16,620 nucleotides of DNA from an uncultured archaeon (GTDB lineage: Archaea > Asgardarchaeota > Thorarchaeia > Thorarchaeales > Thorarchaeaceae), in assembly GCA_964590575.1 (NCBI GenBank), contig CAZPWM010000044.1:6943-23562 (forward strand). Direction: 5' to 3'. This document shows positions 1,721 through 16,555 of this stretch, one piece after another. The stretch's first letter is position 1; every line of letters begins with the position of its first letter. A model generated the notes under the pieces. That model worked only from the letters and a program-made list of their open reading frames with translations, was not told the origin of the DNA and did not search any database. Position numbers and translations under genes: made by a program.

Positions 1721-3862
1721 CTACAATGTGTATCTGTGTCTGTCTAGAAATTCCTGTTTCTTAGCAGGGTTGAAAGAACTCAACGACTGGAGGTACCCAG
1801 TGATCCTACTAAAAATCTCCACTCCGACATGTCCACATCGTGGGCAAGGTATTCGTGAAAGGTCATCAACCGATGAGAAGGATACACGTTTCCAATCAAT
1901 GCCAGCCTGATAGTTGCACGACCCACACTGAAGCACGTCTTTTGTGAAGCTCCAGTACGAGTTCAAGGTCTCCGTGGCAATCTTCTTTGTCAGTTCCCAG
2001 AGCGCGCCAGGATCGGGATTGGCTTCTCCAAGGTAGACGTGAGTTAATGCTCCGCCATCCATGAACGGGTGGAACATACCTTCCTTCTTGATCCGCTGAC
2101 TCAGTGGAAGATTAGCACTGACATCCAGAGTTGTGCTATTTGTGTAGTATACATGGGGAGCCTCACCTTTGAGGTACTTTCTCATACCGGGATACGACTT
2201 GTAGTCTTTCTCAGCAAGACGACCGGCTGCACTCTCAGCGGGGGTCCGGGTAACACCAAAGTGAAGTCCGGTTTCTTCTTGGAACTCAGTAGCCTTTGCC
2301 TTCAAATGTTTGAGGACCTTGATGCCGAATCGAGTGCCCTCACTCTCATGGAGTTGTTGGTTGACCATTACCGCTGCCATTTCGTCAAAACCAATTGTCC
2401 CTAGCAAGAACTCACGGGAATTCATGTCAATGAGGGGTTCGCCATTGGGCTTTGGTTGGGTGTAGAATGGCACACTGCCACTCCCAATTAGCTTATCCAT
2501 GAGCCTCTTCTTCTCGAGGATTACCTCCTTGGATAGTTCCAAGTACTCGTCAACCTTCTCAAAGAACCGGGCCTCATCTGTACGACCAAGCCATGCAGCT
2601 CTTCCAAAATTAGGAGTAACCATCTGTGATGCGCCAAACACCATATTGCCGCTCAGGAACTCCTCGAGCTCCTCATCACTACTTGCAGTCCAAAGGTGCG
2701 AGCAGCAGCTACTGCAACCGGCTTCGATCTTTGACCGCCAATTCAAATAGTTCTCAAAGTATGGAGAACCATGCTTGGCTGTGAGCTCGGCAACGAGGCC
2801 CCATGATGGGTCATACTCAGAGCCAATGAACTCCTTTCGAAGCACGATGTTTGGTTTTGGAAATCCAAATCCTTTACCCTTAGCATCGCCTTTCAGCATG
2901 ACTTCCATGAATGCATTGAAGAAGAGACGGGCTTCCTCTTCATAGTCACCATATGTAATCTCGGTTTCCTTACCGCCTGGTAGAACAGCAGGAACATCTC
3001 GCATTATCTTTGGAATCCCAGGTGTGAGATCAACACTGGAGAAGATGACCTGTCCGCCCCGAGCAACATACTGCTGGGTGAGTGTGAATATCAATTGTTG
3101 AGCGGCCTGCTTAATCTTCTTGTAAGGTTGACCCTTCATGAATGGTGCCATGAATGTGTTGAAGTAGAAATACCCCTGCCCGCCAGCAAACGAGCTCTGA
3201 GCAGCAGCAAGCCAGATCGCCGCATGGTTCATCGCTACAGAGAGGTGCTGAGCTGGGCCGGCAGCGCTCGAGTGCATTCCTCCAAGACCATCGGGAGCGA
3301 TACCTAACTTGAGCACCTGTCGCATGTCCCAAGTGGCACAGTAATCACGGGTGCTGAAATACTCCCTGTCCTTGATGTATATGTCTCCTCGTAGATGTGC
3401 ATCTGCAAGGTGAGGGGGTATCGTTAAGTATGTGTGTTGTTCCATCACCTGGTCATGGACAAGTTTAGCAATAGTTTCAGGGTTACGCATAAGATTAGCA
3501 TTAGATGTGTGGGCACCAGGATTATGGATGAGCAGACTAAGATCGTGCATTGGGATACCGACTCGTGTATATAGAATCCGTTCCTTCTCGAAACCCATCT
3601 CAGCAAGGACACTGTTACACATCTCACGAATAAGAGGACCAGATAGAAACTTGATTCCGGAGGCAACTATTCTGTCCATGACTCTTACAGCAACAAGATG
3701 AGCATCTGCATGAAGAAGCCCAGCCTCCAGCACAAGGCTGTCAATGATTTTGTTAGCATCAAAGGTCTCCATTGTACTACTAGTGGTTCGGACCTTTGGC
3801 ATCTTCTTCTCTCTCAGGCGGAGTTCTTCAGAGGTGGCAAGAGTATTGTGGATATCAGTCAT
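1721..3862 (-). CDS. nrdD: Anaerobic (class III) ribonucleoside-triphosphate reductase with N-terminal ATP cone
   Basis: ATP-cone-like PKVRT...FDANKIIDSL; AHLRGDIYIKD, YCATWD, AGGQG, FPKP, finger-loop SSCC, TPAES, YYTNS, GGALTHV; C-terminal CGSC...CPRCG zinc site and glycyl-radical motif SRITGYL. Confidence 0.96.
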   Translation of the reverse strand: MTDIHNTLATSEELRLREKKMPKVRTTSSTMETFDANKIIDSLVLEAGLLHADAHLVAVRVMDRIVASGIKFLSGPLIREMCNSVLAEMGFEKERILYTRVGIPMHDLSLLIHNPGAHTSNANLMRNPETIAKLVHDQVMEQHTYLTIPPHLADAHLRGDIYIKDREYFSTRDYCATWDMRQVLKLGIAPDGLGGMHSSAAGPAQHLSVAMNHAAIWLAAAQSSFAGGQGYFYFNTFMAPFMKGQPYKKIKQAAQQLIFTLTQQYVARGGQVIFSSVDLTPGIPKIMRDVPAVLPGGKETEITYGDYEEEARLFFNAFMEVMLKGDAKGKGFGFPKPNIVLRKEFIGSEYDPSWGLVAELTAKHGSPYFENYLNWRSKIEAGCSSCCSHLWTASSDEELEEFLSGNMVFGASQMVTPNFGRAAWLGRTDEARFFEKVDEYLELSKEVILEKKRLMDKLIGSGSVPFYTQPKPNGEPLIDMNSREFLLGTIGFDEMAAVMVNQQLHESEGTRFGIKVLKHLKAKATEFQEETGLHFGVTRTPAESAAGRLAEKDYKSYPGMRKYLKGEAPHVYYTNSTTLDVSANLPLSQRIKKEGMFHPFMDGGALTHVYLGEANPDPGALWELTKKIATETLNSYWSFTKDVLQCGSCNYQAGIDWKRVSFSSVDDLSRIPCPRCGHVGVEIFSRITGYLQSLSSFNPAKKQEFLDRHRYTL

Positions 3863-4161
3863 GCGGCATCAAGAACCTCCCTTCGAATCCGTTCCACAGT
3901 TGGAACCTCACCGCTATATAGCAGTCTTAGTTTACCACCATGTTCAATCATAATGGACGGTGTGCTAGCAATGAATACTTGATTTTCTAAGAGCTTGAAC
4001 TCGAATTCAGGATCCATTGTCGGAAGGTCAATTGTTTCCAAGATGACATCAGTTCCATCAAAAGCCTCTTGGATTACTGCCTTCGCTGCAGGACAGTTGG
4101 CGCAACCATCCTGCGTAAAAAGGTAGATAGTTGGTACTGCGTCTCGTCCTCCCGGCATCAT
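3859..4161 (-). CDS. Thioredoxin/glutaredoxin-like redoxin (NrdH-like), CANC active site
   Basis: LFTQDGCANCPAAK CxxC motif, STPSI cis-Pro motif, YSGEVP; ATGA overlap with nrdD; GGGGGTGAG ribosome-binding-like sequence upstream. Confidence 0.85.
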   Translation of the reverse strand: MMPGGRDAVPTIYLFTQDGCANCPAAKAVIQEAFDGTDVILETIDLPTMDPEFEFKLLENQVFIASTPSIMIEHGGKLRLLYSGEVPTVERIRREVLDAA

Positions 4162-5291: not shown

Positions 5292-5906
5292 TTGGATGAT
5301 ATTGATAAAAAATTGGTATCAATTCTACAGAAGAATGGAAGGACTAGCCTCTCAGAGATAGGAAAGAATCTTGGGATGTCTCATGTCGCTGTGAGTAAGC
5401 GACTTGACAAACTGGTCCAGTCTGAACTCGTGAACATTACTGCCGGGGTCAATGCAGAATATCTCGATGCCAAGGTTCTCTTTATGGGACTTGAAACCGA
5501 GGATATGGATGTAGCAGAACGAATTCAGAAAAAATATATTGATTGTCCTAGACTTTTGATGTTTGCACCAGTCACAGGGAGGTATAATGTGTTTGCAGTC
5601 ATGGTTGCGGAGGACACTTGGAGTCTCGAATCAATAATCGGTACGTGCAGTATGAGAACTGAGCCGGGAGTAAGAAGGTCAGAGAGTTGGTTTGGAAATG
5701 CTCCAATCGCGCCTAAGTACCTACAAGTGGATCTAGCACCAAGTGTATCAGGCAGCTCTGTTTCACCATGTGGAAGAGACTGCGGATCATGCAAACGTTA
5801 CAAAGCGGACAAATGTGTAGGATGCCCTCCAACAGATGTCTACAAGGGAAAACTCTGGGCGACACCAAACAAGTCCCAGAAGAAACGTAAAAAGAGCAAA
5901 GGTTAA
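5292..5906 (+). CDS. Lrp/AsnC family transcriptional regulator with C-terminal Cys-rich domain
   Basis: MDDIDKKLVSILQKNGRTSLSEIGKNLGMSHVAVSKRLDKL helix-turn-helix; VTGRYN effector-domain motif; tail PCGRDCGSCKRYKADKCVGCP. Confidence 0.9.
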   Translation: MDDIDKKLVSILQKNGRTSLSEIGKNLGMSHVAVSKRLDKLVQSELVNITAGVNAEYLDAKVLFMGLETEDMDVAERIQKKYIDCPRLLMFAPVTGRYNVFAVMVAEDTWSLESIIGTCSMRTEPGVRRSESWFGNAPIAPKYLQVDLAPSVSGSSVSPCGRDCGSCKRYKADKCVGCPPTDVYKGKLWATPNKSQKKRKKSKG

Positions 5907-5940
5907 CTCGACCAAGACTCTTGATAATCTAGTGAATCTT

Positions 5941-6531
5941 ATGAGTGACGTCTTTATTCACCCACTTGCTGTTGTCGATGAAGGAGCAAAGATTGGCAGC
6001 GGTACGCGAATCTGGCATTTTGCACATGTTAGGGGAACCGCGACAATTGGTAAGGGATGCAACATAGGAAAGGATGTCTACATTGATGCAGATGTTGTAA
6101 TAGGGAATAACGTGAAGATTCAGAATGGTGTTTCTGTGTATCACGGAGTTACTATTGAGGATGACGTGTTTTGTGGTCCTCATATGACATTCACAAATGA
6201 TATGTATCCACGAGCATTCGGTGAGTCTTGGGATGTTTCTAAAACACGAGTCAAGAAAGGAGCTTCAATAGGAGCGCATGCAACAATAATATGCAATACC
6301 ACTCTTGGTGAGTACTGCATGATCGGAAGTGGAGCAGTTGTCACACGCGATGTTCCTGCGCACGGCCTTGTTGTAGGTAACCCAGCACGACTTGTGGGAT
6401 TCGTATGCAAGTGTGGCCAGCCACTGAGTGAGAAAGTTTCACAGGATGACGAGTCCATCACCATGCGTTGCTCTAAATGTAAAACACAGCTAAAGTTGTC
6501 AAAATCAGATTTCAAGAAAAAGGTCAGGTAA
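5941..6531 (+). CDS. Hexapeptide-repeat N-acyltransferase (WbpD/WxcM-like) with C-terminal zinc ribbon
   Basis: FIHPLAVVDEGAKIGSGTRIWHF, KIQNGVSVY, FTND, GAVVTRDVP, GNPAR; CKCG...CSKC tail; ATG 5941 preferred to 5836, which would overlap the regulator. Confidence 0.88.
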   Translation: MSDVFIHPLAVVDEGAKIGSGTRIWHFAHVRGTATIGKGCNIGKDVYIDADVVIGNNVKIQNGVSVYHGVTIEDDVFCGPHMTFTNDMYPRAFGESWDVSKTRVKKGASIGAHATIICNTTLGEYCMIGSGAVVTRDVPAHGLVVGNPARLVGFVCKCGQPLSEKVSQDDESITMRCSKCKTQLKLSKSDFKKKVR

Positions 6532-6538
6532 ACCTGCA

Positions 6539-8650
6539 TTGTCTCACTTATACAAAAAGTTCGTTAAAGAAAGGGTCATAGACTTAGTGAGTCAAACTGA
6601 GAATATTCGCAATGTGACAATCATTGCACATATTGATCATGGGAAGACAACCCTGAGTGACTCTCTAATTGCTGCGTCTGGACTACTCTCAAAGGATATT
6701 GCAGCATCAGCTAGGCTTCTGGACTACGATCTTATTGAGCAGCAGAGAGGTATCACGATAAAAGCGTCAGGAATTTCACTAATCCATGCTCTTGGTGGAA
6801 AAGACTATCTAATTAATCTTGTAGACACTCCTGGACACATTGATTTCTCAAGTCATGTAACCAGAGGTCTCAGGCTTACTGATGGTGCTGTTATTGTAGT
6901 AGATTCAATCGAGGGCATAATGGTTCAAACAGAAACCGTTACCCGACAAGCGATGATGGAACTTGTCAGACCAGTACTCTTTGTGAATAAGGTTGATAGA
7001 TTACTTCGAGAAAGAAGATTGAGCGGTCGGAAGACTGCTGAAGAGATCAATAAAGTAGTACGTGAATTCAATGCAATGCTTGGAAAGTATCTAGATGATA
7101 GAAGATTGGAAGAGTGGGAGGTGTCCTTTAGCAAAGGATCTCTCAGCGTTGGTTCAGCAATTGACAAGTGGGGCTTGGGCATAGATACTCTCAAGGATCG
7201 CACTGGAGGAAGTGTAGCGCCAGCAGACCTAGCAAAAGCATTTCTTTCAATCATGGGAGAAATCGAAGAAACCTACAAAGCAGAAAACCAAAGAGATCTA
7301 GCAGTCCAATATCCTATCGCACAAGTTGTTATGGATTCGGTAGTCAGGGTTATTCCGAATCCCATAGTTGCGCAAGCTTATCGAGTTCCAAGGTTCTGGG
7401 ATGGAGATCCAGATTCAGAGATTGGAAAGAAACTCATTCGATGCAGCAGTAGTGGTCCTTGCATATGCATGGTAGGTGAGGTACAACCTGATAGACATGC
7501 AACAACAGTTACAGCAGTGCGAGTCTTCTCAGGTACTCTAAAGAGAGCTAGAGCCCTTATCAATTTGAGAACCAGAGAACAACGTAAGTCACTTCAGATT
7601 GGAATGTATATGTCAAAAACCCGTGTGGATCTCTCACATGTCCCTGCAGGTAATTTAGCATTCATCACAGGTCTTAGAGATATTGCTGTTGGAGATACTT
7701 TGATTGATGCTGAAGGTTATGAGAAATCAAAAGAATCAATTCCTCCAATGAGTGCTCTTCAATATCCCACAGAACCTGTTGTAACCTATACGATTGAACC
7801 AAGAAACCTTGCTGAACTTGGCAGTATTCAGGAACTTATTGAAGCCTATGTTAACACAGACCCAGCTCTTGAATTCGAAGTCAATCCTGAAACTGGTGAA
7901 ATGCTCCTCTCAGGAGCGGGAGAGCTTCACATCGAAATCTCTGTCGAGAAACTTACAAGACAGGGGATAGTAATTATTCTTGGTAAACCAATGGTGCTTC
8001 TGAAAGAGCAGCTCACAACTGAAGGAAAATCTTGTTCAAATGAAAACGAAAGCGTCAGTTCTTTCACAATTCGTGCAACAATTACATCTGATGAAATAGC
8101 TCCTGAAACGATTGGGTCAGTAATAGATCAAGATTTGAGTTCTGCAAGCTGGATTGTAGATACATCCAACAAGATCAATCAGTTTAGCGATGAAGCTGAA
8201 TGGATCAAAGAAGCATTCAGAACAATCATTCGTAATGGCACAGTAAGAGGAGAAAGAATGCGAAGGTTGGGTCTTGTGATAGAACGAGCATCTATAAGAT
8301 CGGAAGCACCTGAAACATCATGGAGAGATATCACACAACCTTTACTTAAGGCAGCCCGAGAGAGTGTTACATCAGGTGCTCCTGTCGTTTTAGAACCTTG
8401 GATTCACCTTGAAATCAGTACACCAGAAGAATATGTTGGAACAATGAGTGCAATACTATCGAAACGAAAGGGGCATGTCCTTGAGATAAATTCTGATAGA
8501 ACACTCTATAAAATTAGTGCAGAGATTCCTGTGAGAGAGTCATTTGGTCTTGCTAATGAGATTCGAACCTCAACCTCAGGATGGGCAACTTGGGGAGCAC
8601 AGGCAGGGGGTTTTAGAGACATAAAGAATTCAGAGGTACGCTATGATTGA
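6539..8650 (+). CDS. Translation elongation factor EF-2 paralog (aEF-2p-like) without the diphthamide motif
   Basis: G1 AHIDHGKTT, RGITI, DTPGH, NKVD; domain III ETGE...GAGELHIE; domain V LEP...ESFGLANEIRTSTSG; domain IV HRG position reads ETS. Confidence 0.88.
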   Translation: MSHLYKKFVKERVIDLVSQTENIRNVTIIAHIDHGKTTLSDSLIAASGLLSKDIAASARLLDYDLIEQQRGITIKASGISLIHALGGKDYLINLVDTPGHIDFSSHVTRGLRLTDGAVIVVDSIEGIMVQTETVTRQAMMELVRPVLFVNKVDRLLRERRLSGRKTAEEINKVVREFNAMLGKYLDDRRLEEWEVSFSKGSLSVGSAIDKWGLGIDTLKDRTGGSVAPADLAKAFLSIMGEIEETYKAENQRDLAVQYPIAQVVMDSVVRVIPNPIVAQAYRVPRFWDGDPDSEIGKKLIRCSSSGPCICMVGEVQPDRHATTVTAVRVFSGTLKRARALINLRTREQRKSLQIGMYMSKTRVDLSHVPAGNLAFITGLRDIAVGDTLIDAEGYEKSKESIPPMSALQYPTEPVVTYTIEPRNLAELGSIQELIEAYVNTDPALEFEVNPETGEMLLSGAGELHIEISVEKLTRQGIVIILGKPMVLLKEQLTTEGKSCSNENESVSSFTIRATITSDEIAPETIGSVIDQDLSSASWIVDTSNKINQFSDEAEWIKEAFRTIIRNGTVRGERMRRLGLVIERASIRSEAPETSWRDITQPLLKAARESVTSGAPVVLEPWIHLEISTPEEYVGTMSAILSKRKGHVLEINSDRTLYKISAEIPVRESFGLANEIRTSTSGWATWGAQAGGFRDIKNSEVRYD

Positions 8651-8658
8651 TTATTGGA

Positions 8659-10959
8659 CTACCGCCGTAGATAGAACCTTTTGTTCATGACAGTTCCTAT
8701 TGTAGAGAGTACCCGACGGTCCACGAAGGATATGCGATCAATAATTCTCAAAGCACGAGTTAAGTTCGAGAATACGGCATTAAGATAGGGTTGTGCTTCA
8801 ACCATTTCCGATTGTTCAACCATCTGCAGATAGGCATTGGCTATCTTAACCAACCCAAGCCAATCTTCATCTAAAAGGAAGTTGTATTGATTCTCATCAA
8901 CATCTACAGGAGCCCCTTGAAACCGTCCTCTATCAATATATGCAGCATATTGATTCTCCAATACTAGCGCAAAGCGACGTAGTACTTTTGATATTGAAGA
9001 TGATGTTGCTTTGATGAACTCTGAAGACTCAAGAAATGTTGGTTCTATCAATGCAACCGCTCCAAATGCAATAGCTGCTCCATAAAAACCAGTAGCTAAT
9101 TCGGAATAGTCCTTATTGTCATAAAAGGCTCTGATTGTCTGGACAAGATAGGTCTGACCCAACCAGTACTGTGCTAGAAGTGGATCATTACGCTGAACCG
9201 CATCATCCACTGGAGGTTGAATCCTTACACCAACCTCGAAATTCAACGCATCCAAGTTTAATTTAGCTGTCGATAATGCAGCAGTCAACCCAGCAACATC
9301 AGCAAGAGGGGATGTACTGACGCTCATCATCTTCGACCGCTCTAGAAGGGTGTTCCATGAATTCTCTAAGAATGGAACTACTAGAGATACACCATGGATA
9401 AACATTGATTCTTCATCTACTCTGACATCAATCAGCATTCTATCAATATCATCGAGTAGCCTCGTGAGTCTGGGGGGGATGGTACCACCGTGTCGATTCA
9501 ATAACCAGACAACATTGTATGTTGCAATAGCCATCTCTACAAATGCTCGAGTGTCAGTGGGAGAAAGGGGTACATACTGGACCAATATATCACGGAGTGG
9601 GTCTTGAATATCTAGCTCAGTTCTTTTAGAGATACGCATTTGTGAAAGTGCCAAACCCATCCGAGTTCCAATAAGCTCAATCTCTGAAACCCTACCATCA
9701 GCAAATTGAGCCTCTCGTAATTTCACAGCTGTTTCAAATGAAGTCAAACCAATTGGCCAAAATTCATCGCTTTCAGTGCAAAGGCAGGACCAACCAATTG
9801 CATTCTCTGTTCTCGCGAGCTCAAGGTCAATATCGGGGTAGAAGTCCTCCAAGTTTCGAAGTATTCCTTTGGCTTCATTGAAGTACTCTATTGATTTTGT
9901 CATGTTATCATGATCACCTAGGAGACCATGAGCAAAACCAAGACCAGCCAGTATCTTGAATACATGAATTCTATGATTGGTTTTGTTTTCCTCGACACTA
10001 TTAAAAATTCTAAGCCCAAGTTGAAGACGATTAATGGCTTGAGGTACACCTTCTCGCCAACCATTTGCCAAGATACTAGAACCAATCACAAGGTGAGCAA
10101 GGCCCACCTCAGCTTTATCAACAAGACCATCTTTAAGAGCTAAGTCGTAGAGTTCTGCAGCTTTGTCGCCTATATCACGTGCGGTAGTATGAGACACCGT
10201 TTCATCCCGGGTTTCATTCACACCCAGTTGAAGGCTCACCTCTGCAAGTCGCACCTGGGCATTTTGTGCACGCGCGATTGTTTCCAATTCATTAAGACGC
10301 GTCCGAGCTGCTTCAAACATATGAAGTTCGGTGAGAACACAAGCATAGTCAAAAGTTACCTCAAATGAGAAGTCGTTTTGACCTATTTCATTGCTTATCT
10401 CAATTAATCGATTAAGAAGTAATTCTGCACCTTCAAAGAAACCTTCTTTGATGAGTAACCAAGCGAGATTATGGATCTCATATAATGCAAGTGTTGTCGC
10501 ACTGTCATGACGTCGGTCATAGATAGCATTCAGAGTCATGAGAACCTCATCAGCTAAGAATGGGAGTAGAGGCCTAAGATTGAGTCGAATTGAAGAGCTG
10601 AGAGCTTGGGATAGTTCACCGAGAATATCAATAAGATCGGGGATTGCTTCAATATCAGGAAGGATCTCACACTCTGAACGTCGATGACCATTCGTGTATC
10701 TTGTATCAAGCAACAACAAGAGTTCGGGAACCACACGGTCTTTGTGGAATGATAATCGGATTGATAGCTCAGTAAGTTTAGCACTCGCAAGACCAGGTCT
10801 ACGAAGGATGATTTCCTCAATAGCACGTGCGATATCAAAGAGAGTATTTGCTTCTCCAATGTCATTAAATGAAATGTTTTGAACTGCGGAGAGACCATCA
10901 TCGAGAGACAGATTTACGCAGAGTATATCTCTCAGTGTAGCTATGAGCATTGCTTGCAT
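8659..10959 (-). CDS. Large alpha-helical hypothetical protein, TPR-like solenoid
   Basis: 766-aa ORF, Leu/Ala/Glu-rich, with TPR-like segments (LYEIHNLAWLL...AELLL, LAGLGFAHGLLGD...SIEYFNEA, ARTENAIGW...FETAVKLRE); GAGGAGAG upstream of ATG. Confidence 0.7.
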   Translation of the reverse strand: MQAMLIATLRDILCVNLSLDDGLSAVQNISFNDIGEANTLFDIARAIEEIILRRPGLASAKLTELSIRLSFHKDRVVPELLLLLDTRYTNGHRRSECEILPDIEAIPDLIDILGELSQALSSSIRLNLRPLLPFLADEVLMTLNAIYDRRHDSATTLALYEIHNLAWLLIKEGFFEGAELLLNRLIEISNEIGQNDFSFEVTFDYACVLTELHMFEAARTRLNELETIARAQNAQVRLAEVSLQLGVNETRDETVSHTTARDIGDKAAELYDLALKDGLVDKAEVGLAHLVIGSSILANGWREGVPQAINRLQLGLRIFNSVEENKTNHRIHVFKILAGLGFAHGLLGDHDNMTKSIEYFNEAKGILRNLEDFYPDIDLELARTENAIGWSCLCTESDEFWPIGLTSFETAVKLREAQFADGRVSEIELIGTRMGLALSQMRISKRTELDIQDPLRDILVQYVPLSPTDTRAFVEMAIATYNVVWLLNRHGGTIPPRLTRLLDDIDRMLIDVRVDEESMFIHGVSLVVPFLENSWNTLLERSKMMSVSTSPLADVAGLTAALSTAKLNLDALNFEVGVRIQPPVDDAVQRNDPLLAQYWLGQTYLVQTIRAFYDNKDYSELATGFYGAAIAFGAVALIEPTFLESSEFIKATSSSISKVLRRFALVLENQYAAYIDRGRFQGAPVDVDENQYNFLLDEDWLGLVKIANAYLQMVEQSEMVEAQPYLNAVFSNLTRALRIIDRISFVDRRVLSTIGTVMNKRFYLRR

Positions 10960-11020
10960 TCGAGCCTCTCCTCTTAGAGGATGCTCAATGTTCCTGCTTT
11001 AAAGGTTTCACAGAAATTAG

Positions 11021-11734
11021 TTATCGCGTAATCTTGAAATCGTGCCATTCTCTTGAGGTGTCAGTACCTCGCATACGCTCCATTCTGAGTTGATGCAAGG
11101 GGGTTGGACCGCTATCATCTATTCTAAATCTTAGAACTGCATCAGCTAAGTATGAAAATGTGGCATAGGTCTTCTCGTCATGAACACCATCTTCAAGGAC
11201 ATACATAATACTGTGCGAGCTTTGTGTTATTCTACCACTCAAACGTTGGACTGCTCTTGGCATTGTTGCAGGATTGGAGTGCAGAATCAATGTGGAAAGA
11301 CTATCAATCACAATTCGCGCGACAACAAGTTTCTCTAATACCTCTGACAAGACGATTCCAAGCTCACTAGTATCTTCCACTTTTGCAAGTGACCTTGCAG
11401 AACCAGTCTGTTGAGCTCCCATCCGTTCTGAATATGCATCGATGAAAACAAAACGACCAGATGCTTCTTGCTCTTCAACACTCCAACCATGACGGCTCAT
11501 ATCATTTCGAATGGACCGCGGAGAAACATCTGTTGTGACGAAGACTGCAGGGAATCCTAAAGCAATCCCTTCAGCAAGAAAAGCCTCTGCATACGTAGTC
11601 TTTCCTGAACCAAGTGGACCCACCAACATATAGGATACTTGCGTAAGTTGACCAAACTTCACAAGATCACTGATCATAGGAGTGGCTTTTGCTGGGGGTT
11701 GCACCACCCTTTGTGAGTCTTGATTCTCAACCAC
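11021..11734 (-). CDS. RecA-superfamily KaiC/RAD55-like ATPase, single domain, degenerate catalytic site
   Basis: Walker A GPLGSGKTT, Walker B IVIDSLS, EDGVHD, LADAVL, RMRG; the catalytic EE position reads DV. Confidence 0.88.
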   Translation of the reverse strand: MVENQDSQRVVQPPAKATPMISDLVKFGQLTQVSYMLVGPLGSGKTTYAEAFLAEGIALGFPAVFVTTDVSPRSIRNDMSRHGWSVEEQEASGRFVFIDAYSERMGAQQTGSARSLAKVEDTSELGIVLSEVLEKLVVARIVIDSLSTLILHSNPATMPRAVQRLSGRITQSSHSIMYVLEDGVHDEKTYATFSYLADAVLRFRIDDSGPTPLHQLRMERMRGTDTSREWHDFKITR

Positions 11735-11759
11735 TTTCTGGGCCTCGCAATATCACTGA

Positions 11760-12506
11760 TTAGGTCCCGGGACTGATTTCCCCAGGCCATACTCGGATTC
11801 CTTCATCTGTGATTCTCATGGAATGAATCCTTGAACTATGTTTCGAACCTCTCAGTTTGAGAACCTCGATGGAACGAGAACGAGATGTGTCACTTATTTT
11901 CTCGTTGTAGAGTACAATTACACCCGATGCTAAGAAGGCTTCGATATCAAACACGCCTAAGCCATGATCATCAGCCGGAATCTCACTGGTAAGGAGGAGA
12001 GTACAGCCAGTTCTTGTGATAGTAGCTGCAAGCTTGAAGAACTCCTCCCGAAGGATATCTCGACTCTTGAATTTGTAAGCCATAATCGAGAGTGTGTCAA
12101 GAACGACACGCTTTGCATTTAGTTTCTTAATATGATTGAGAATAATTGCTTCCAATCCTGAAAGGTCAAAACTTGGATACTCCCCAATTGTGACGGGAGT
12201 CACTTCTTTTGAGGGTGACAAGTCAACTATTGAGATTCTCTTTTCATTCACAAGCTTCTCAAGGTCCATCCCAAATCGCATCATATTCCTCTTGATAAGA
12301 TGAGGAGGTTCTTCGAGAGTTACGAACACTCCGGGTTCGTCATATTCAGTGGCACCCTTGTAGATGAACTGTGTAGCAAGAATGCTTTTTCCAGTTCCAG
12401 CCTTTCCTGCGATGAGGATTGTATCACCTCTGGGAAAGCCACCCTCGATCAGTTCATCGAGACCAGGAATACCAGTCTTTACTCTATCAATTTCATGGTC
12501 GCTCAT
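11760..12506 (-). CDS. Single-domain KaiC-like ATPase resembling the CI domain
   Basis: TGIPGLDELIEGGFP, Walker A GKAGTGKS, DEPGVFVTLEE, FDLSGL, RVVLDT, R-finger IEVLKLRG, ITDEGIRVWP. Confidence 0.93.
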   Translation of the reverse strand: MSDHEIDRVKTGIPGLDELIEGGFPRGDTILIAGKAGTGKSILATQFIYKGATEYDEPGVFVTLEEPPHLIKRNMMRFGMDLEKLVNEKRISIVDLSPSKEVTPVTIGEYPSFDLSGLEAIILNHIKKLNAKRVVLDTLSIMAYKFKSRDILREEFFKLAATITRTGCTLLLTSEIPADDHGLGVFDIEAFLASGVIVLYNEKISDTSRSRSIEVLKLRGSKHSSRIHSMRITDEGIRVWPGEISPGT

Positions 12507-12835
12507 TTTGACCCTTCCTTCTTTTTTGATAATACTTTTACACCAAGAACCATTTTCATCAGCATGTCCGGTTCAGGGATCCCGGTCACTGACATTCCAC
12601 CAATCATAACGGTCGGTAGTGCAAAGATACCAAATTCTTCAGCAGATTCTGGATTCTCACTGACGTTAATCACCTTTAGAGTGAACGCGTCGGAGCCAAA
12701 GTCCTCAATTGTTTCTCGAACTACTTCTTCTGCTCGCGGACAAAATGCACAAGTATCAGACTTGAAAAAAACAACCTCGATTTTCTCGATGGCGTCTTTC
12801 TTTGTTGACGCTTTGCGTTTTTTCTTATCCGCCAA
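12503..12835 (-). CDS. Thioredoxin-fold protein with CAFC motif (small archaeal thioredoxin / KaiB-like)
   Basis: FKSDTCAFCPRA, LKVINVSENPESAEEFGIFALPTV; ATGA overlap with the KaiC-like gene; TTG start with AGGAG upstream; basic N- and C-termini. Confidence 0.88.
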   Translation of the reverse strand: MADKKKRKASTKKDAIEKIEVVFFKSDTCAFCPRAEEVVRETIEDFGSDAFTLKVINVSENPESAEEFGIFALPTVMIGGMSVTGIPEPDMLMKMVLGVKVLSKKKEGSK

Positions 12836-12948
12836 ATGGTCGCACTCCTGAGTTCAAGAAACGGCAATGTTTCAAGCAATAGTTGTCACTTGAATGTTTT
12901 GAGGGTGTCGGCAGACATCCACTGGATATAGAAATGAATACAGGGATA

Positions 12949-13332
12949 TTATGAATATTTCAATAGACGTCTAATCCTTGTCGCAGCTTTTCCAATTGGT
13001 CGTGAGTGATAGCGGACTCCGCGAGGCATAACTGCTGCTAGAATCAATGCTTGCTTCCCACTTGTTCCTATCTTCTTGAAGACTGCTTTCCCTTGGGTGC
13101 ATCGGAGACTGATGTCTCGAATATCCCCAAGCATCAGTTCTTTGCGTACTCTCTCTGCTGAATTCGAGATAAAACCAGAAACCGCTGCGACTACATCCCG
13201 GTCAGCACCTGGGGAAACTGCTGATGCAATAGAGAAACCATCGTCTCGCACGAGAGACGAGTGTGTAAACCCGCCTTCCTTGTTCATCTGCTCAAGAATC
13301 TTAGGAAGTGCATTGTAATCAGGACGGCTCAT
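12949..13332 (-). CDS. Roadblock/LC7 (MglB-like) domain protein
   Basis: 127 aa; SLVRDDGFSIAS, DVVAAVSG...AERVRKEL pattern typical of roadblock proteins; AAGGAGA upstream. Confidence 0.87.
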   Translation of the reverse strand: MSRPDYNALPKILEQMNKEGGFTHSSLVRDDGFSIASAVSPGADRDVVAAVSGFISNSAERVRKELMLGDIRDISLRCTQGKAVFKKIGTSGKQALILAAVMPRGVRYHSRPIGKAATRIRRLLKYS

Positions 13333-13380
13333 TGAAATTCTCTCCTTTGAATCAACGGTCTACACTCGAATTAGTCGTTT

Positions 13381-13428
13381 CCCTAATAAACCATCTTAGA
13401 CTGCACCAACCACAGTAGAGATTTAAAT
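13381..13428. promoter_or_regulatory. Putative divergent promoters for the roadblock operon and the Rab-like GTPase
   Basis: Minus-strand TTTATTA at 13384-13390 and ATTTAAAT at 13421-13428 in a 134-bp head-to-head gap. Confidence 0.35.
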
Positions 13429-13466
13429 GCCCTCGACCTTTGTTCATGGGTGCGGGTTTGAGTGCC

Positions 13467-14015
13467 ATGTCAGCTGAGTTCCGCTATAAAATCGTCATGT
13501 TGGGGGACGGTGCAGTAGGAAAGACAGCTATGACCGCTCGTTTCACTCAAGATCATTTCGATTCTGATTACAAGCGCACCATCGGAAGCGACTTTGCAAT
13601 CAAACGACTCACTCTCGAGGACTTAGATGCGCAGGTGACTTTGCAGATATGGGATCTCGCCGGGCAACCAAGATTCGAGTCTGTGCGCCAGGGGTTTTAC
13701 AGAGGGGCTCGCGGGGGGCTATTGCTTTACGATGTGACCCGAAGACGGACATTCATGAACGTTGAGAACTGGAAAGACGAAGCATTCAAAAACCTACAGA
13801 ATGAAATACCCCTAGTCTTGGTAGCAAACAAGGTAGATCTAAAGGATAGTCGAGTAGTTTCAACAGAAGAGGGCGAGAAGTATGCAAAGAAAAACGGGCT
13901 CATCTACGTTGAGTCTAGTGCGCTCACTGGTGAGAACGTTGAGGAAGCATACTCAACCTTGTGTAAAAAGATGATTGAAGACTCCAAGAACGGGATTCCA
14001 ACCAAGACTGTCTAG
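13467..14015 (+). CDS. Rab-like small GTPase
   Basis: G1 GDGAVGKT, G2 YKRTIG, G3 WDLAGQ, G4 NKVD, G5 ESSAL; RabF-like IGSDF, LQIWD, RFES, FYRGA, LLYDVT; no C-terminal Cys; start at ATG 13467 preferred. Confidence 0.93.
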   Translation: MSAEFRYKIVMLGDGAVGKTAMTARFTQDHFDSDYKRTIGSDFAIKRLTLEDLDAQVTLQIWDLAGQPRFESVRQGFYRGARGGLLLYDVTRRRTFMNVENWKDEAFKNLQNEIPLVLVANKVDLKDSRVVSTEEGEKYAKKNGLIYVESSALTGENVEEAYSTLCKKMIEDSKNGIPTKTV

Positions 14016-14021
14016 TAACTA

Positions 14022-15158
14022 TTACCCATTCCTGGTTGTTCCTTTCAGTAAACCTAGTTCACGTTTACACTGCCATACCAGATAGAAGATCTTCTTGGTT
14101 GCTAAGATTGCTTCATCATAATTTGAACAGAGATTCTCGAACTGCTGTACTAGTTCATCTCTGGTTTCTTCACTCAACGTAGATTTAATCTCGTTCAAGA
14201 GTGCTTCGAAAGGAGCTATTGTGCCTGCAAGGTCAGTAACGTCCCAACGAATAATCGCTCCAGTACCATCTGCAGTCAGAAAAGATGAGGTCTTAGGATA
14301 CCACTCAATCCCGTCAATCTCACCCATTGTCGAAGCCTCACCGTGAATGGCAAGTTTTTCTGTGTCCCAGAGATAGATTGTCTTATCACTAGATCCTGAG
14401 GCGAGGTATTTACCATCCTCACTAAATGAGAGTGCTCGAACCTCTGTGTTGTGACCCTGAAGAACATGAGCTACCTTCATTGGTGTTCCTGCGGAGTCCC
14501 AGAGAATCACGTGAAGGTCGGAGGATCCAGAAGCAAGTCTTGACCCATCAGGACTGAAGCGGACGTTGTGTACTGCAGCACGGTGTTCACTGTGTCGTTG
14601 AATCATTTCACCAGAGTTTGAATCCCACTCGCAGATATTAGCATCAACAGATCCAGACACAATTCGGTTGTCCTGAGGATCCCAGTCACACGTGACCACG
14701 TAGAAACCATGTCCTTTCATGTGATTAAGCCGAGAATGATTTTCAACGTCCCATATCATGAGTGTAGTGTCACCGCTTCCGGAAACCAGCTTGTTGCCAT
14801 CAGGAGAGAAGGCAAGAGCAAGAACAGGATATTCATGACCCTCTAGTGTAGCTAAGCATTCACCTGTTCGAATATCCCAAAGTTTTACAACACGTTCAAC
14901 ACTTCCAGTTGCAAGAATGTCACCTTTCGGACTGAAAGCAATCGATGTACAGAGAAACTCGTCCTGCATTCGTTGTATCTCTTCGCCATTATCAGCGAAA
15001 TAAAGACGAATACTTCGATCCTGCAACGCCGCAGCATACATCCGTCCTACTTGATTCATTGCGAACCTTCTGGTTATCTCAGATCCATGCTCGGCCTGAC
15101 CTTTCAGGATTATTGGTTTCAGGAATATTGAAGTCTCTTGACTCTCCATATATGTCAC
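14022..15158 (-). CDS. WD40-repeat beta-propeller protein with a short helical C-terminal extension
   Basis: About seven repeats with GH...SGS.D..W-D signatures (e.g. LEGHEYPVLALAFSPDGNKLVSGSGDTTLMIWD); about 70-aa predicted helical tail; exact start uncertain (15158 or 15149). Confidence 0.93.
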   Translation of the reverse strand: MTYMESQETSIFLKPIILKGQAEHGSEITRRFAMNQVGRMYAAALQDRSIRLYFADNGEEIQRMQDEFLCTSIAFSPKGDILATGSVERVVKLWDIRTGECLATLEGHEYPVLALAFSPDGNKLVSGSGDTTLMIWDVENHSRLNHMKGHGFYVVTCDWDPQDNRIVSGSVDANICEWDSNSGEMIQRHSEHRAAVHNVRFSPDGSRLASGSSDLHVILWDSAGTPMKVAHVLQGHNTEVRALSFSEDGKYLASGSSDKTIYLWDTEKLAIHGEASTMGEIDGIEWYPKTSSFLTADGTGAIIRWDVTDLAGTIAPFEALLNEIKSTLSEETRDELVQQFENLCSNYDEAILATKKIFYLVWQCKRELGLLKGTTRNG

Positions 15159-15331
15159 GCACAGACCCGTTTCTAAATGCTCGAGGTTTTAGAGTGCGTA
15201 AAAGTCTTGTTGATACATCATCCAGCGCTACTAATCAAACTTGAACTGCATTCAGCTACGCGAATAAAATCATGCAACATCGCAGTAACCATTATCTACT
15301 GCCACAACGAGAATCAATGTGAGGGTGACCT

Positions 15332-16555
15332 TTGGTCGATAAGGACGAGCGGAGAATTGCTGCAGCATTAGGTGGAGGCGAATCTGTTAGTCGTTTTAAG
15401 AAGGCAGTGAAGGGAGTATTGAGAAAATCAGATGATATTGTAAGCAAGATGCTGTCCAATCTAACGAGTATCCAAGCATGCAAAGACGCCGCATTAACTG
15501 GAGATGATGACCTTAGATTGCTAGCAGTTTGTCGGCTTGGAGAATTCGGCGCGGCTGCATTTGATGCTCTCGATATTTCTCTCAACGACGAGAGTTTCTT
15601 GGTTCGTACAGTGGCTGCAGGAATGCTAGCTTACACAGAGGACAAAGAAGCAATTGATATCCTCAAACCCTATCTCGTTGACAACGATGAAACTGTAAGA
15701 GATGCTGTGAAGTATTCACTAGGTTGGCTCGATGAATATGCGTCTAAGAAGGAACATGGCACACGTATTCCTGAAAAATGGGAAAATCCAGCAGAGATTC
15801 TTCTTGACACAGATGCGATTCCTTTGAGGATCTCAGAGGAAGTAGAAGTCATCAGCACCTATACTACAATACCAGAAAGTCTAGAATTTGGAATGAATGT
15901 GGAGAACAACACCTTGGAAACAATCCATGAGGTTTCCATCAAAGTCTTGTTGTATCCGAACGAGAGTCTAAAGCCTCTTGACCCTCTAAGCCAACTCATC
16001 GTATCAATAGAACCAGGAGGGATCGAGGCGCTCATCTTTGGTTTCAAAGTGACCAATGAAGTAGTTGAGGGAGAGTTTGTTACATCAGTTCAATTCATTG
16101 ACGAAAAAGGGGAGGATGTAGCCGCGATCTCTGGCAACATATTTGTGAGATCTCTGTTCGAACAGGTACTCCCTCTAAAGACAACACCTGAAGAGCTCCT
16201 CAGTCTAAAAGCTAAGATGAAAGAGTGGAATAGAGAACACTCTCTTGCTGTTGATGCGAAAGAGCTATTCGACATATTACAAAATCTCTTTCAAAGCTGG
16301 AATCTATACACTATCCAAACTGAGAACACTGAAAGGGATGGTGTGTTTATGGGAGTCGTTTCTGGGATGGCAAAAGGAAGGATTCACGGCAACAAGTTGG
16401 CAGTGACCTTAACAGTTGTTGGACGGGTCGATGATGAACTGTCAAAACTACGAATTGATGTTCTTTCTGATGACCCTGAGGTTTTACACACCGTTGCTAG
16501 TGTGCTCTTTGAAACAATACAAAGAAAACTTGGTGTAATCGAGATGGAAACCTAG
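15332..16555 (+). CDS. HEAT-repeat protein with a probable adaptin/coatomer appendage-like C-terminal region
   Basis: HEAT/PBS-like repeats (LNDESFLVRTVAAGML, LVDNDETVRDAVKYSLG); beta-rich Ig-like segment (FGMNVENNTLETIHEVSIKV...IEPGG); alpha/beta C-terminus ending LRIDVLSDDPEVLHTVASVL. Confidence 0.7.
   Translation: MVDKDERRIAAALGGGESVSRFKKAVKGVLRKSDDIVSKMLSNLTSIQACKDAALTGDDDLRLLAVCRLGEFGAAAFDALDISLNDESFLVRTVAAGMLAYTEDKEAIDILKPYLVDNDETVRDAVKYSLGWLDEYASKKEHGTRIPEKWENPAEILLDTDAIPLRISEEVEVISTYTTIPESLEFGMNVENNTLETIHEVSIKVLLYPNESLKPLDPLSQLIVSIEPGGIEALIFGFKVTNEVVEGEFVTSVQFIDEKGEDVAAISGNIFVRSLFEQVLPLKTTPEELLSLKAKMKEWNREHSLAVDAKELFDILQNLFQSWNLYTIQTENTERDGVFMGVVSGMAKGRIHGNKLAVTLTVVGRVDDELSKLRIDVLSDDPEVLHTVASVLFETIQRKLGVIEMET

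Follow-up and report, generated by a model that had tools for sequence, protein, structure and literature searches.

How a small GTPase gene comes to lie beside genes for KaiC-family ATPases, and whether the two have anything to do with each other, is the question raised by a 16,620-nucleotide stretch of DNA (hereafter the window; positions 6,943 to 23,562 of contig CAZPWM010000044.1, assembly GCA_964590575.1) from an uncultured archaeon of the Asgard family Thorarchaeaceae. A gene for a Rab-like small GTPase (13467..14015, plus strand) diverges there from a minus-strand series of five genes. These encode a 127-aa roadblock/LC7 protein (12949..13332), a 110-aa thioredoxin-fold protein (12503..12835), a 248-aa single-domain KaiC-family ATPase that we term KaiC-A (11760..12506), a 237-aa paralogue, KaiC-B, that is likewise single-domain but degenerate (11021..11734), and a 766-aa tetratricopeptide repeat (TPR)-like α-solenoid protein (8659..10959). 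An earlier note, made from the letters of this DNA, had described the six genes as a Kai-like module in one run with a roadblock gene and head-to-head with a Rab-like gene. Their order, their strands and the gaps of 113, −4, 25 and 61 bp along the minus-strand series all agree with the open reading frame (ORF) table, as does the divergent spacer of 134 bp, counted to the Rab ATG at 13467. On balance, and with slightly better than even confidence, we favor the view that the Kai-like genes are functionally coupled with the GTPase and roadblock genes and form a conserved Asgard signaling neighborhood around one KaiC subfamily; each mechanistic step within such a coupling is much less certain than the coupling itself.

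The evidence that carries this view comes from relatives of KaiC-A in other Asgard lineages. Besides the Thorarchaeota loci described below, we collected 39 further loci around the best KaiC-A-like matches, from 37 genomes and 23 other families (genome G108 included). The same tblastn search, with five GTPase queries, was applied to all loci to detect GTPases, and Pfam was run on selected neighbors. A tree of 44 Asgard KaiC proteins was computed by a quick IQ-TREE search under LG+C20, with two-domain proteins cut to their first 250 residues and four very long-branched KaiC-B-like rows left out. In this tree KaiC-A fell in a clade of 18 rows from 17 loci, with a Shimodaira–Hasegawa-like approximate likelihood ratio test (SH-aLRT) support of 95. 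Of the 17 in-clade loci, 9 (the window, L095, L097, L108, L102, L106, L114, L123 and L134), representing 7 of 13 families, had a GTPase no more than 1.2 kb from the KaiC. Outside the clade this held for a single locus, L116, out of 24 (1/18 families). These other KaiCs belong to the same phylum as the clade members, and some to the same genomes, and hence serve as a control for GTPase density. Fisher's exact test of in-clade versus outside-clade loci gave p = 5e-4 when loci were counted and 0.004 when families were counted, values weakened by the choice of the 1.2-kb limit after the data had been seen and by the fact that related genomes are not independent samples. These comparisons demonstrate a clade-specific association of the KaiC-A subfamily with small GTPases across Asgard families.

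Linkage also persisted in the sister family of the same order. In G108 (locus L095, family f2) the Rab gene is inverted, and Rab, roadblock, thioredoxin, KaiC-A and KaiC-B follow one another in the same direction, 46, 76, 0 and 26 bp apart; a TPR gene is absent. KaiC-A identity to the window protein is 65% in this genome, compared with 78–94% within the window's own family (f1) and at best ≤47% in other Asgard families. Thus, the linkage between Kai genes and the small GTPase gene survives rearrangement. In the window genome itself (3.4 Mb), tblastn found 22 small-GTPase and 4 roadblock loci, and the roadblock gene of the cluster is the only one of the four that adjoins a GTPase gene. Assuming ~3,400 genes, we estimate the chance that any given gene has a GTPase gene as its direct neighbor at about 1%.

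Within Thorarchaeota the arrangement is close to uniform. We found 64 loci and kept 60 as Thorarchaeota-like, dropping four distant ones (one Nitrososphaerales, three bacterial). The 60 include L062, which is titled Hermodarchaeota yet has a KaiC-A 91% identical, and two partial matches, L059 (100%, residues 14–247) and L064 (97%, residues 214–248), which could derive from the genome of the window or from one very close to it. Counted over those of the 60 loci with enough flank, the thioredoxin-fold gene is immediately upstream of KaiC-A, by a 4-bp overlap or close spacing, in 54/54, KaiC-B adjoins in 56/56 and a roadblock gene lies within 1 kb in 50/50. The TPR gene adjoins in 48 of 49 f1 loci, and a divergent Rab gene is found ≤400 bp from the roadblock gene in 45 of 49.

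The two KaiC-family proteins differ in their catalytic residues. KaiC-A matches the Pfam KaiC family at 237.8 bits, and its best match in the PDB is the CI half of the two-domain KaiC 8zn5 (182 bits to CI, 72 to CII). The Walker A motif G-x-[AP]-GTGK-[ST], the glutamates of TLEE and the Walker B aspartate of [VI][LI]DT are present in 54/54 sequences, in which a B-loop-like segment that aligns with the CI B-loop region is nearly invariant. These features liken KaiC-A to the CI half of KaiC and predict an active ATPase. KaiC-B matches Pfam KaiC at 109.1 bits and DUF7504 at 42.5 bits. Alignment to PH0284 (2dr3) places its TTDVSP opposite LEEHP; TTDVSP, with Asp-Val instead of the catalytic Glu-Glu, is identical in 35/35 orthologues, and the P-loop GK[TS] is retained. 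KaiC-B is thus a degenerate paralogue in which neither catalytic glutamate is left. It scores 42 bits against the CI half of 8zn5 and 17 bits against the CII half. The assignment of KaiC-B as a CII half was rejected on these scores and on the loss of the glutamates.

The thioredoxin-fold protein was compared with both thioredoxin and KaiB families. Its Pfam match to Thioredoxin_3 (35.3 bits) is accompanied by matches to the Thioredoxin and Glutaredoxin families and by a match to KaiB (PF07689) at 28.5 bits with a cut-off of 27. The KaiB match covers residues 40–76 only, corresponding to profile positions 19–55 of 82. A CxxC motif (CAFC, C29 and C32) and the cis-proline P74 do not vary among 26 sequences drawn from four Asgard families, and hhalign against a bona fide Asgard KaiB gave 87% probability over 28 columns only. 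The gene has a TTG start directly preceded by AGGAG, its 3' end overlaps KaiC-A by 4 bp, and a thioredoxin-fold gene occupies the kaiB position in four families (f1, f2, f13 and f18). Identity as a true KaiB was rejected, given the partial KaiB match, the higher Thioredoxin_3 score, the invariant CxxC and cis-proline and the short hhalign alignment. The protein is best described, on its sequence, as a redox-type thioredoxin in the kaiB position.

The Rab-like protein (Pfam Ras, 184.4 bits) matched the PDB entries 7EZB, 7EZD and 7EZE, named 'Thorarchaeota Rab', with a phmmer E-value of 1.7e-96 and residues 1–175 aligned onto 1–175; the gene is the orthologue of the crystallized Thor-Rab (7EZB). 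A longer ORF starts at TTG 13440, and we preferred the start at ATG 13467 because it aligns with residue 1 of crystallized Thor-Rab. The P-loop GDGAVGKT, the switch II sequence DLAGQ and NKVD are invariant across 24 Rab orthologues. The C-terminus (...GIPTKTV) has no cysteine for prenylation of the eukaryotic Rab type. Tran et al. (2024, Commun Biol, PMC10933270) give contig LRSL01000056.1 as the source of Thor-Rab, present its structures together with a phosphate-release GTPase assay, find it soluble when expressed and remark on the difficulty of assigning regulators to Asgard GTPases from genome layout. The text contains neither 'ATPase' nor 'gene cluster' and uses 'operon' for MK-D1 only. 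LRSL01000056.1 is our locus L028 (82% identical by tblastn), in which the gene order is as in the window.

Roadblock proteins are known regulators of small GTPases, MglB acting on MglA and Ragulator on Rag. The roadblock protein of the window barely passes the Pfam cut-off for Robl_LC7 (PF03259; 23.1 bits, cut-off 23), and its orthologue in L095 falls under it at 22.1 bits. An AlphaFold2 (AF2) model with a mean predicted local distance difference test (pLDDT) score of 86.3 consists of a helix, two strands, a helix, three strands and a helix (H8–20, E24–29, E34–39, H45–66, E73–78, E81–91, E94–103 and H110–124). Foldseek matched this model to MK-D1 Roadblock3 (9jue) with a TM score of 0.86–0.90 and a root-mean-square deviation of 1.3, to MglB (3t1s and 6izw) with a TM score of ~0.8, and also to LAMTOR2/p14 (1veu and 6b9x). 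The model shows a full-length fold of the MglB/LAMTOR2 type. The crystallized Thor roadblock 7f8m, from the same organism as Thor-Rab, is a different paralogue (E 5e-4 to the window roadblock). Complex prediction with two roadblock copies and Rab, run with alignment inputs, scored 0.31 against a mark of 0.32 and was not used as evidence either way.

For the 766-aa protein, AF2 produced an all-helical solenoid of 33 helices (pLDDT 88.8, predicted TM score 0.76). Its Foldseek matches are TPR superhelices, namely Ctr9, Ski3, IFT-A and the TPR domain of LGN/Pins (TMt 0.71–0.74), and its nearest Atlas clusters are TPR clusters. The only Pfam match is TPR_12, below threshold (17.8 bits, cut-off 30.1). 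The protein is accordingly modeled as a TPR solenoid. The gene was found only in the window's own family f1 and is not in the f2 cluster; a profile search of five other Asgard genomes, run without a positive control, gave no match.

Outside Thorarchaeota, the neighbors of the clade vary from family to family. In f13 (L097 and L108), the order is three small ORFs, a thioredoxin/glutaredoxin-like (Trx/Grx) gene, KaiC and a Gtr1/RagA-like GTPase (Pfam Gtr1_RagA). The f10 locus (L114) has Ras, KaiC and a second KaiC-like gene, with a Pfam-weak roadblock ~900 bp off on the other strand; hhalign gave this protein only 10.6% probability against our roadblock profile. In f12 (L106), KaiC is followed by Ras, a GvpD-like gene and a response regulator, and two degenerate KaiC genes are divergent; in f16 (L102) the order is response regulator, KaiC, Ras, an unknown gene, KaiC and response regulator. 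The f22 loci (L123 and L134) carry Ras, a small ORF and KaiC with an Arf-like GTPase nearby. The f18 locus (L101) carries a Trx-like gene, Trx, KaiC and a degenerate KaiC and has no GTPase. A canonical cluster is found in f9 (L117:3212-7829), with a response regulator, KaiB (83 bits), a two-domain KaiC (492 aa, 387 bits) and a hybrid PAS histidine kinase. A roadblock gene accompanies the clade in only three families (f1, f2 and f10).

In f13, the ORF just upstream of the thioredoxin gene has as its nearest Atlas clusters Asgard and eukaryotic longin proteins of the NPR2/NPRL3/folliculin type (score 0.93, 194 shared features), a lead only toward a longin-like protein in place of roadblock. The roadblock profile showed no similarity by hhalign to the small ORFs upstream of Trx in L101 and L097, and the L101 ORF has a weak thioredoxin match. 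No Pfam match at E ≤ 0.01 was obtained for the L097 proteins of 139 and 100 aa, the L102 protein of 401 aa, the L106 protein of 103 aa or the L123 protein of 79 aa. The picture that emerges is of one KaiC subfamily whose partners are swapped between lineages, so that some have two-component proteins and others have small GTPases together with a roadblock or longin protein. The presence of the canonical KaiBC cluster of L117 inside the clade fits such a KaiC core with lineage-exchanged partners.

The spacers of the window locus contain conserved elements. An alignment of 46 Thorarchaeota divergent Rab/roadblock spacers (13333..13466 in the window) revealed two sets of conserved columns with TATA-like boxes: TTTAAAT at 13421–13427, located 40–46 nt upstream of the Rab ATG, and TTTATTA at 13384–13390, located 52–58 nt upstream of the roadblock ATG. 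The spacer between KaiC-B and the 766-aa gene (10960..11020, minus strand) has a conserved TTTAAA at 10998–11003, 39–44 nt upstream of the TPR-gene ATG (32 spacers aligned). In the spacer between roadblock and Trx (12836..12948, minus strand), an 18-nt motif, CTCAAAACATTCAAGTGA at 12886–12903 (−), is found in 30 of 32 distinct Thorarchaeota sequences from 33 aligned spacers; RNAalifold found no consensus structure in this spacer. The motif is not TATA-like and may be an internal or unusual promoter or an operator. We infer that the TATA-like boxes act as promoters, one for Rab, one for roadblock (perhaps shared by Trx, KaiC-A and KaiC-B) and one for the TPR gene.

Several of these observations speak against a functional coupling and would be expected if two or three independent units (Rab/roadblock, Trx–KaiC–KaiC and the TPR gene) simply sat in an inherited order with no signal passing between them. 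The whole 16-kb region is syntenic across Thorarchaeota, from the gene for the anaerobic ribonucleotide reductase NrdD to that for a HEAT-repeat protein and including the EF-2-like gene and thymidylate synthase; because housekeeping genes are thus part of the same conserved order, conservation within Thorarchaeota cannot separate function from inheritance. L027 has no Rab gene, and the Rab and roadblock genes are parted by insertions in L014 (a pyruvate kinase gene), L046 and L052; the two inserts of L052 have no Pfam match at E ≤ 0.01. No GTPase is near KaiC at 8 of the 17 in-clade loci (L101, L117, L121, L122, L127, L130, L131 and L132, with L121 and L132 cut by contig ends), and L101 keeps the Trx–KaiC–KaiC-B arrangement without one. 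The KaiC-adjacent GTPases, moreover, are not one family, being Rab-like at most loci and Rag-like in f13. They formed no supported clade apart from other Thorarchaeota Rab paralogues in a GTPase tree that is too poorly resolved to judge orthology (support <80 on 13 of 26 inner branches). The variety can be read as repeated recruitment, which would favor a functional link, or as a weakening of the case for one inherited module. The boxes ahead of roadblock and the TPR gene and the conserved motif in the 113-bp roadblock–Trx spacer also make several transcription units likelier and suggest two or three rather than one. The 'one run' of the earlier note therefore stands as a gene order, whereas these elements argue against reading it as a single transcript. 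What independent units explain less readily is that GTPase adjacency is concentrated inside one KaiC clade, that the inverted Rab gene of G108 is still attached, now co-directional and at short gaps, that f13 shows the same layout built with a Rag-like GTPase, and that a GTPase neighbor would arise by chance so rarely in a genome with 22 GTPase loci. We regard independence as a genuine possibility, yet one clearly less probable than coupling. The linkage proposed in the earlier note was upheld by the rearranged L095 locus and, in part, by the wider comparison (7/13 families in the clade, 1/18 outside). The note had held that separation of the Kai from the GTPase and roadblock genes in most relatives would refute it; within the order such separation is not what we found, and across the phylum it holds for about half.

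Two further explanations concern the Kai-like genes themselves. One would make the locus a KaiBC-type timer or hourglass, with the thioredoxin-like protein as KaiB and KaiC-A and KaiC-B as split CI and CII halves. The order Trx/KaiC-A/KaiC-B does mirror kaiB/kaiC (CI–CII), KaiC-A is closest to a CI half and keeps the B-loop-like segment, the thioredoxin-like protein exceeds the Pfam KaiB cut-off, and a canonical KaiB with a two-domain KaiC occurs in the same KaiC clade. Yet the KaiB match extends over only 37 residues and is outscored by Thioredoxin_3, the invariant CxxC and cis-proline are thioredoxin features, and the alignment to a real Asgard KaiB is confined to its 28 columns. A clock KaiC has two RecA domains (CI and CII, ~500 aa), an architecture that neither KaiC-A nor KaiC-B possesses, and a CII-like autokinase domain with Ser/Thr phosphosites and an A-loop is not present in either. 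KaiC-B, with its higher score to CI than to CII and its glutamates gone in all orthologues, does not supply an autokinase half of known kind, nor is it the sister of KaiC-A in the KaiC trees. We consider a timer of this type very improbable. The other explanation sees in the thioredoxin-like protein a general disulfide reductase or maturation factor whose task is to hold the KaiC pair, or other enzymes close by, in the reduced state, a housekeeping role rather than a sensor. Its intact CxxC and cis-proline agree with this, and the second Trx/Grx-like gene of the window, coupled to NrdD, indicates that pairings with client enzymes occur in this region. A pairing with KaiC that holds at every Thorarchaeota locus scored and recurs in f2, f13 and f18 would be unusual for a general reductase, and we judge this role unlikely.

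If the Kai-like genes are coupled with the GTPase and roadblock genes, as we favor, the parts suggest how a signal might pass. Predicted to be active and catalytically crippled, respectively, KaiC-A and KaiC-B probably form an oligomer that depends on nucleotide state. The CxxC thioredoxin-fold protein, whose gene is arranged for translational coupling to KaiC-A, would be a likely redox-sensitive partner, much as KaiB and SasA are partners of the CI half. The Rab-like GTPase would be the output or the coupled switch, and the roadblock protein encoded head-to-head with it a candidate regulator or scaffold. The state of KaiC may be passed to Rab via roadblock acting as a GTPase-activating protein (GAP), a guanine nucleotide exchange factor (GEF) or a scaffold, and the TPR solenoid is a possible Thorarchaeaceae-specific scaffold. 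The full chain, in which the nucleotide state of a KaiC ring, gated by a redox thioredoxin in KaiB's stead, would control a Rab or Rag GTPase via a roadblock or longin protein, is a doubtful proposition as a whole. Were it true, metabolic sensing in the style of Ragulator and GATOR would have a prokaryotic counterpart, possibly a forerunner, of which the Thorarchaeota and f13 clusters would be two versions.

Parts of the locus resemble systems known from other organisms. In the MglA–MglB system of Myxococcus and Thermus, a Ras-like GTPase is paired with a GAP that is a roadblock dimer; the window likewise has a full-length roadblock gene beside a small GTPase gene, and the roadblock model superposes on MglB. 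MglA is without the switch II glutamine, whereas the window GTPase is Rab-like and has its own (DLAGQ), and the genes are divergent instead of forming an mglBA operon. To our knowledge, the Mgl system has no KaiC or thioredoxin part. The eukaryotic Ragulator/LAMTOR–Rag system and GATOR1, with its NPRL2/3 longin proteins, share with the Asgard loci the pairing of roadblock or longin proteins with small GTPases, and f13 combines a Rag-like GTPase with a possible NPR2-like longin. In contrast to Rag, the window GTPase is Rab-like with no C-terminal roadblock domain. No membrane anchor was identified. The six cluster proteins, all small, have no Pfam membrane-domain matches. The place that amino-acid sensors occupy in eukaryotes is taken here by a KaiC ATPase and a thioredoxin.

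The likeness to the cyanobacterial clock lies in the thioredoxin-fold gene directly upstream of a CI-like KaiC with a B-loop-like segment. KaiB and the thioredoxin-like domain of SasA bind the B-loop of KaiC-CI. Here, by contrast, the partner has a redox CxxC, the KaiC is single-domain and accompanied by a degenerate paralogue, and no KaiA was noted in the loci scanned. A closer parallel comes from archaea, for which Makarova, Galperin and Koonin reportedly described, in 2017, KaiC-like 'signal transduction hubs' that include inactivated KaiC domains. An active KaiC with a degenerate partner of the DUF7504 type, variable input and output genes, and response regulators flanking the relatives in L102, L106, L116 and L117 all resemble such hubs. 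We view the cluster as an archaeal signaling hub of the KaiC type that is probably joined to a small GTPase and a roadblock protein.

Liu et al. (bioRxiv 10.1101/2020.10.19.343400) report a conserved Asgard operon of a LAMTOR1-like roadblock protein, a Rab-like GTPase and a DENN protein. It shares with the window locus a roadblock-superfamily protein and a Rab-like GTPase and differs in its DENN protein and in that the word 'KaiC' does not occur in the text; Pfam found no DENN-family match at E ≤ 0.01 among the window proteins. The cluster was not found described in the literature on KaiC with Asgard archaea, roadblock proteins or small GTPases, although Makarova et al. 2017 or the supplementary tables of Liu et al. 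may already mention it.

Ideas on the origin of eukaryotic membrane and nutrient signaling center on the small GTPases, roadblock proteins and longin proteins of Asgard archaea, almost none of which has been matched to a regulator. The locus names a candidate roadblock for the only Thorarchaeota Rab with a crystal structure and measured GTPase activity, and it proposes an upstream input in the form of a KaiC ATPase pair and a redox thioredoxin. If the coupling is real, the idea of archaeal KaiC hubs would extend to GTPase outputs and would join two signaling systems that have so far been studied separately.

The remainder of the window offers several minor observations. NrdD (713 aa, Pfam NRDD 445.8 bits) lies with its upstream partner gene at 1721–4161 (−). 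The partner is a 100-aa Trx/Grx-like gene (3859–4161) overlapping NrdD by 4 bp, a second and separate thioredoxin-fold pairing in the window. Positions 5292–6531 (+) encode a 204-aa AsnC-type helix-turn-helix (HTH) protein with a cysteine-rich and lysine-rich C-terminus. The longest ORF of this gene overlaps that of the next, a hexapeptide-repeat transferase, by 71 bp, and the true start of the transferase is probably further downstream. A 703-aa EF-G/EF-2-family gene (6539–8650, plus strand, TTG start) is convergent with the TPR gene, with 8 bp between their ends, and adjoins the cluster at every Thorarchaeota locus as well as in G108. On the other side, at 14022–16555, lie a minus-strand gene for a 378-aa WD40 propeller, which converges on Rab, and a gene for a protein of 407 aa with N-terminal HEAT repeats and an unassigned C-terminal half. 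The WD40 gene is missing from some Thorarchaeota loci, and neither gene goes with Rab in G108.

Other arrangements were seen among the additional Asgard loci. About 6 kb from the KaiC–Ras–KaiC cluster of f16, a separate Ras-like GTPase/roadblock pair is encoded head-to-head (L102:16036-17244). The one outside-clade KaiC with a nearby GTPase, in f26, belongs to a co-directional series of KaiC, a diacylglycerol-kinase-like gene (DAGK_cat and YegS_C), Ras and a response regulator (L116:3647-6849). KaiCs that each adjoin an AsnC/Lrp-type regulator formed a separate clade of 11 rows (SH-aLRT 98–99), and a first, smaller tree gave the same split. In these 11 loci from 9 Asgard families (L096, L098–L100, L103–L105, L107 and L109–L111), the regulator is directly upstream of a slowly evolving KaiC, and in L103 and L105 a gene for a long roadblock-domain protein is convergent with the KaiC gene.

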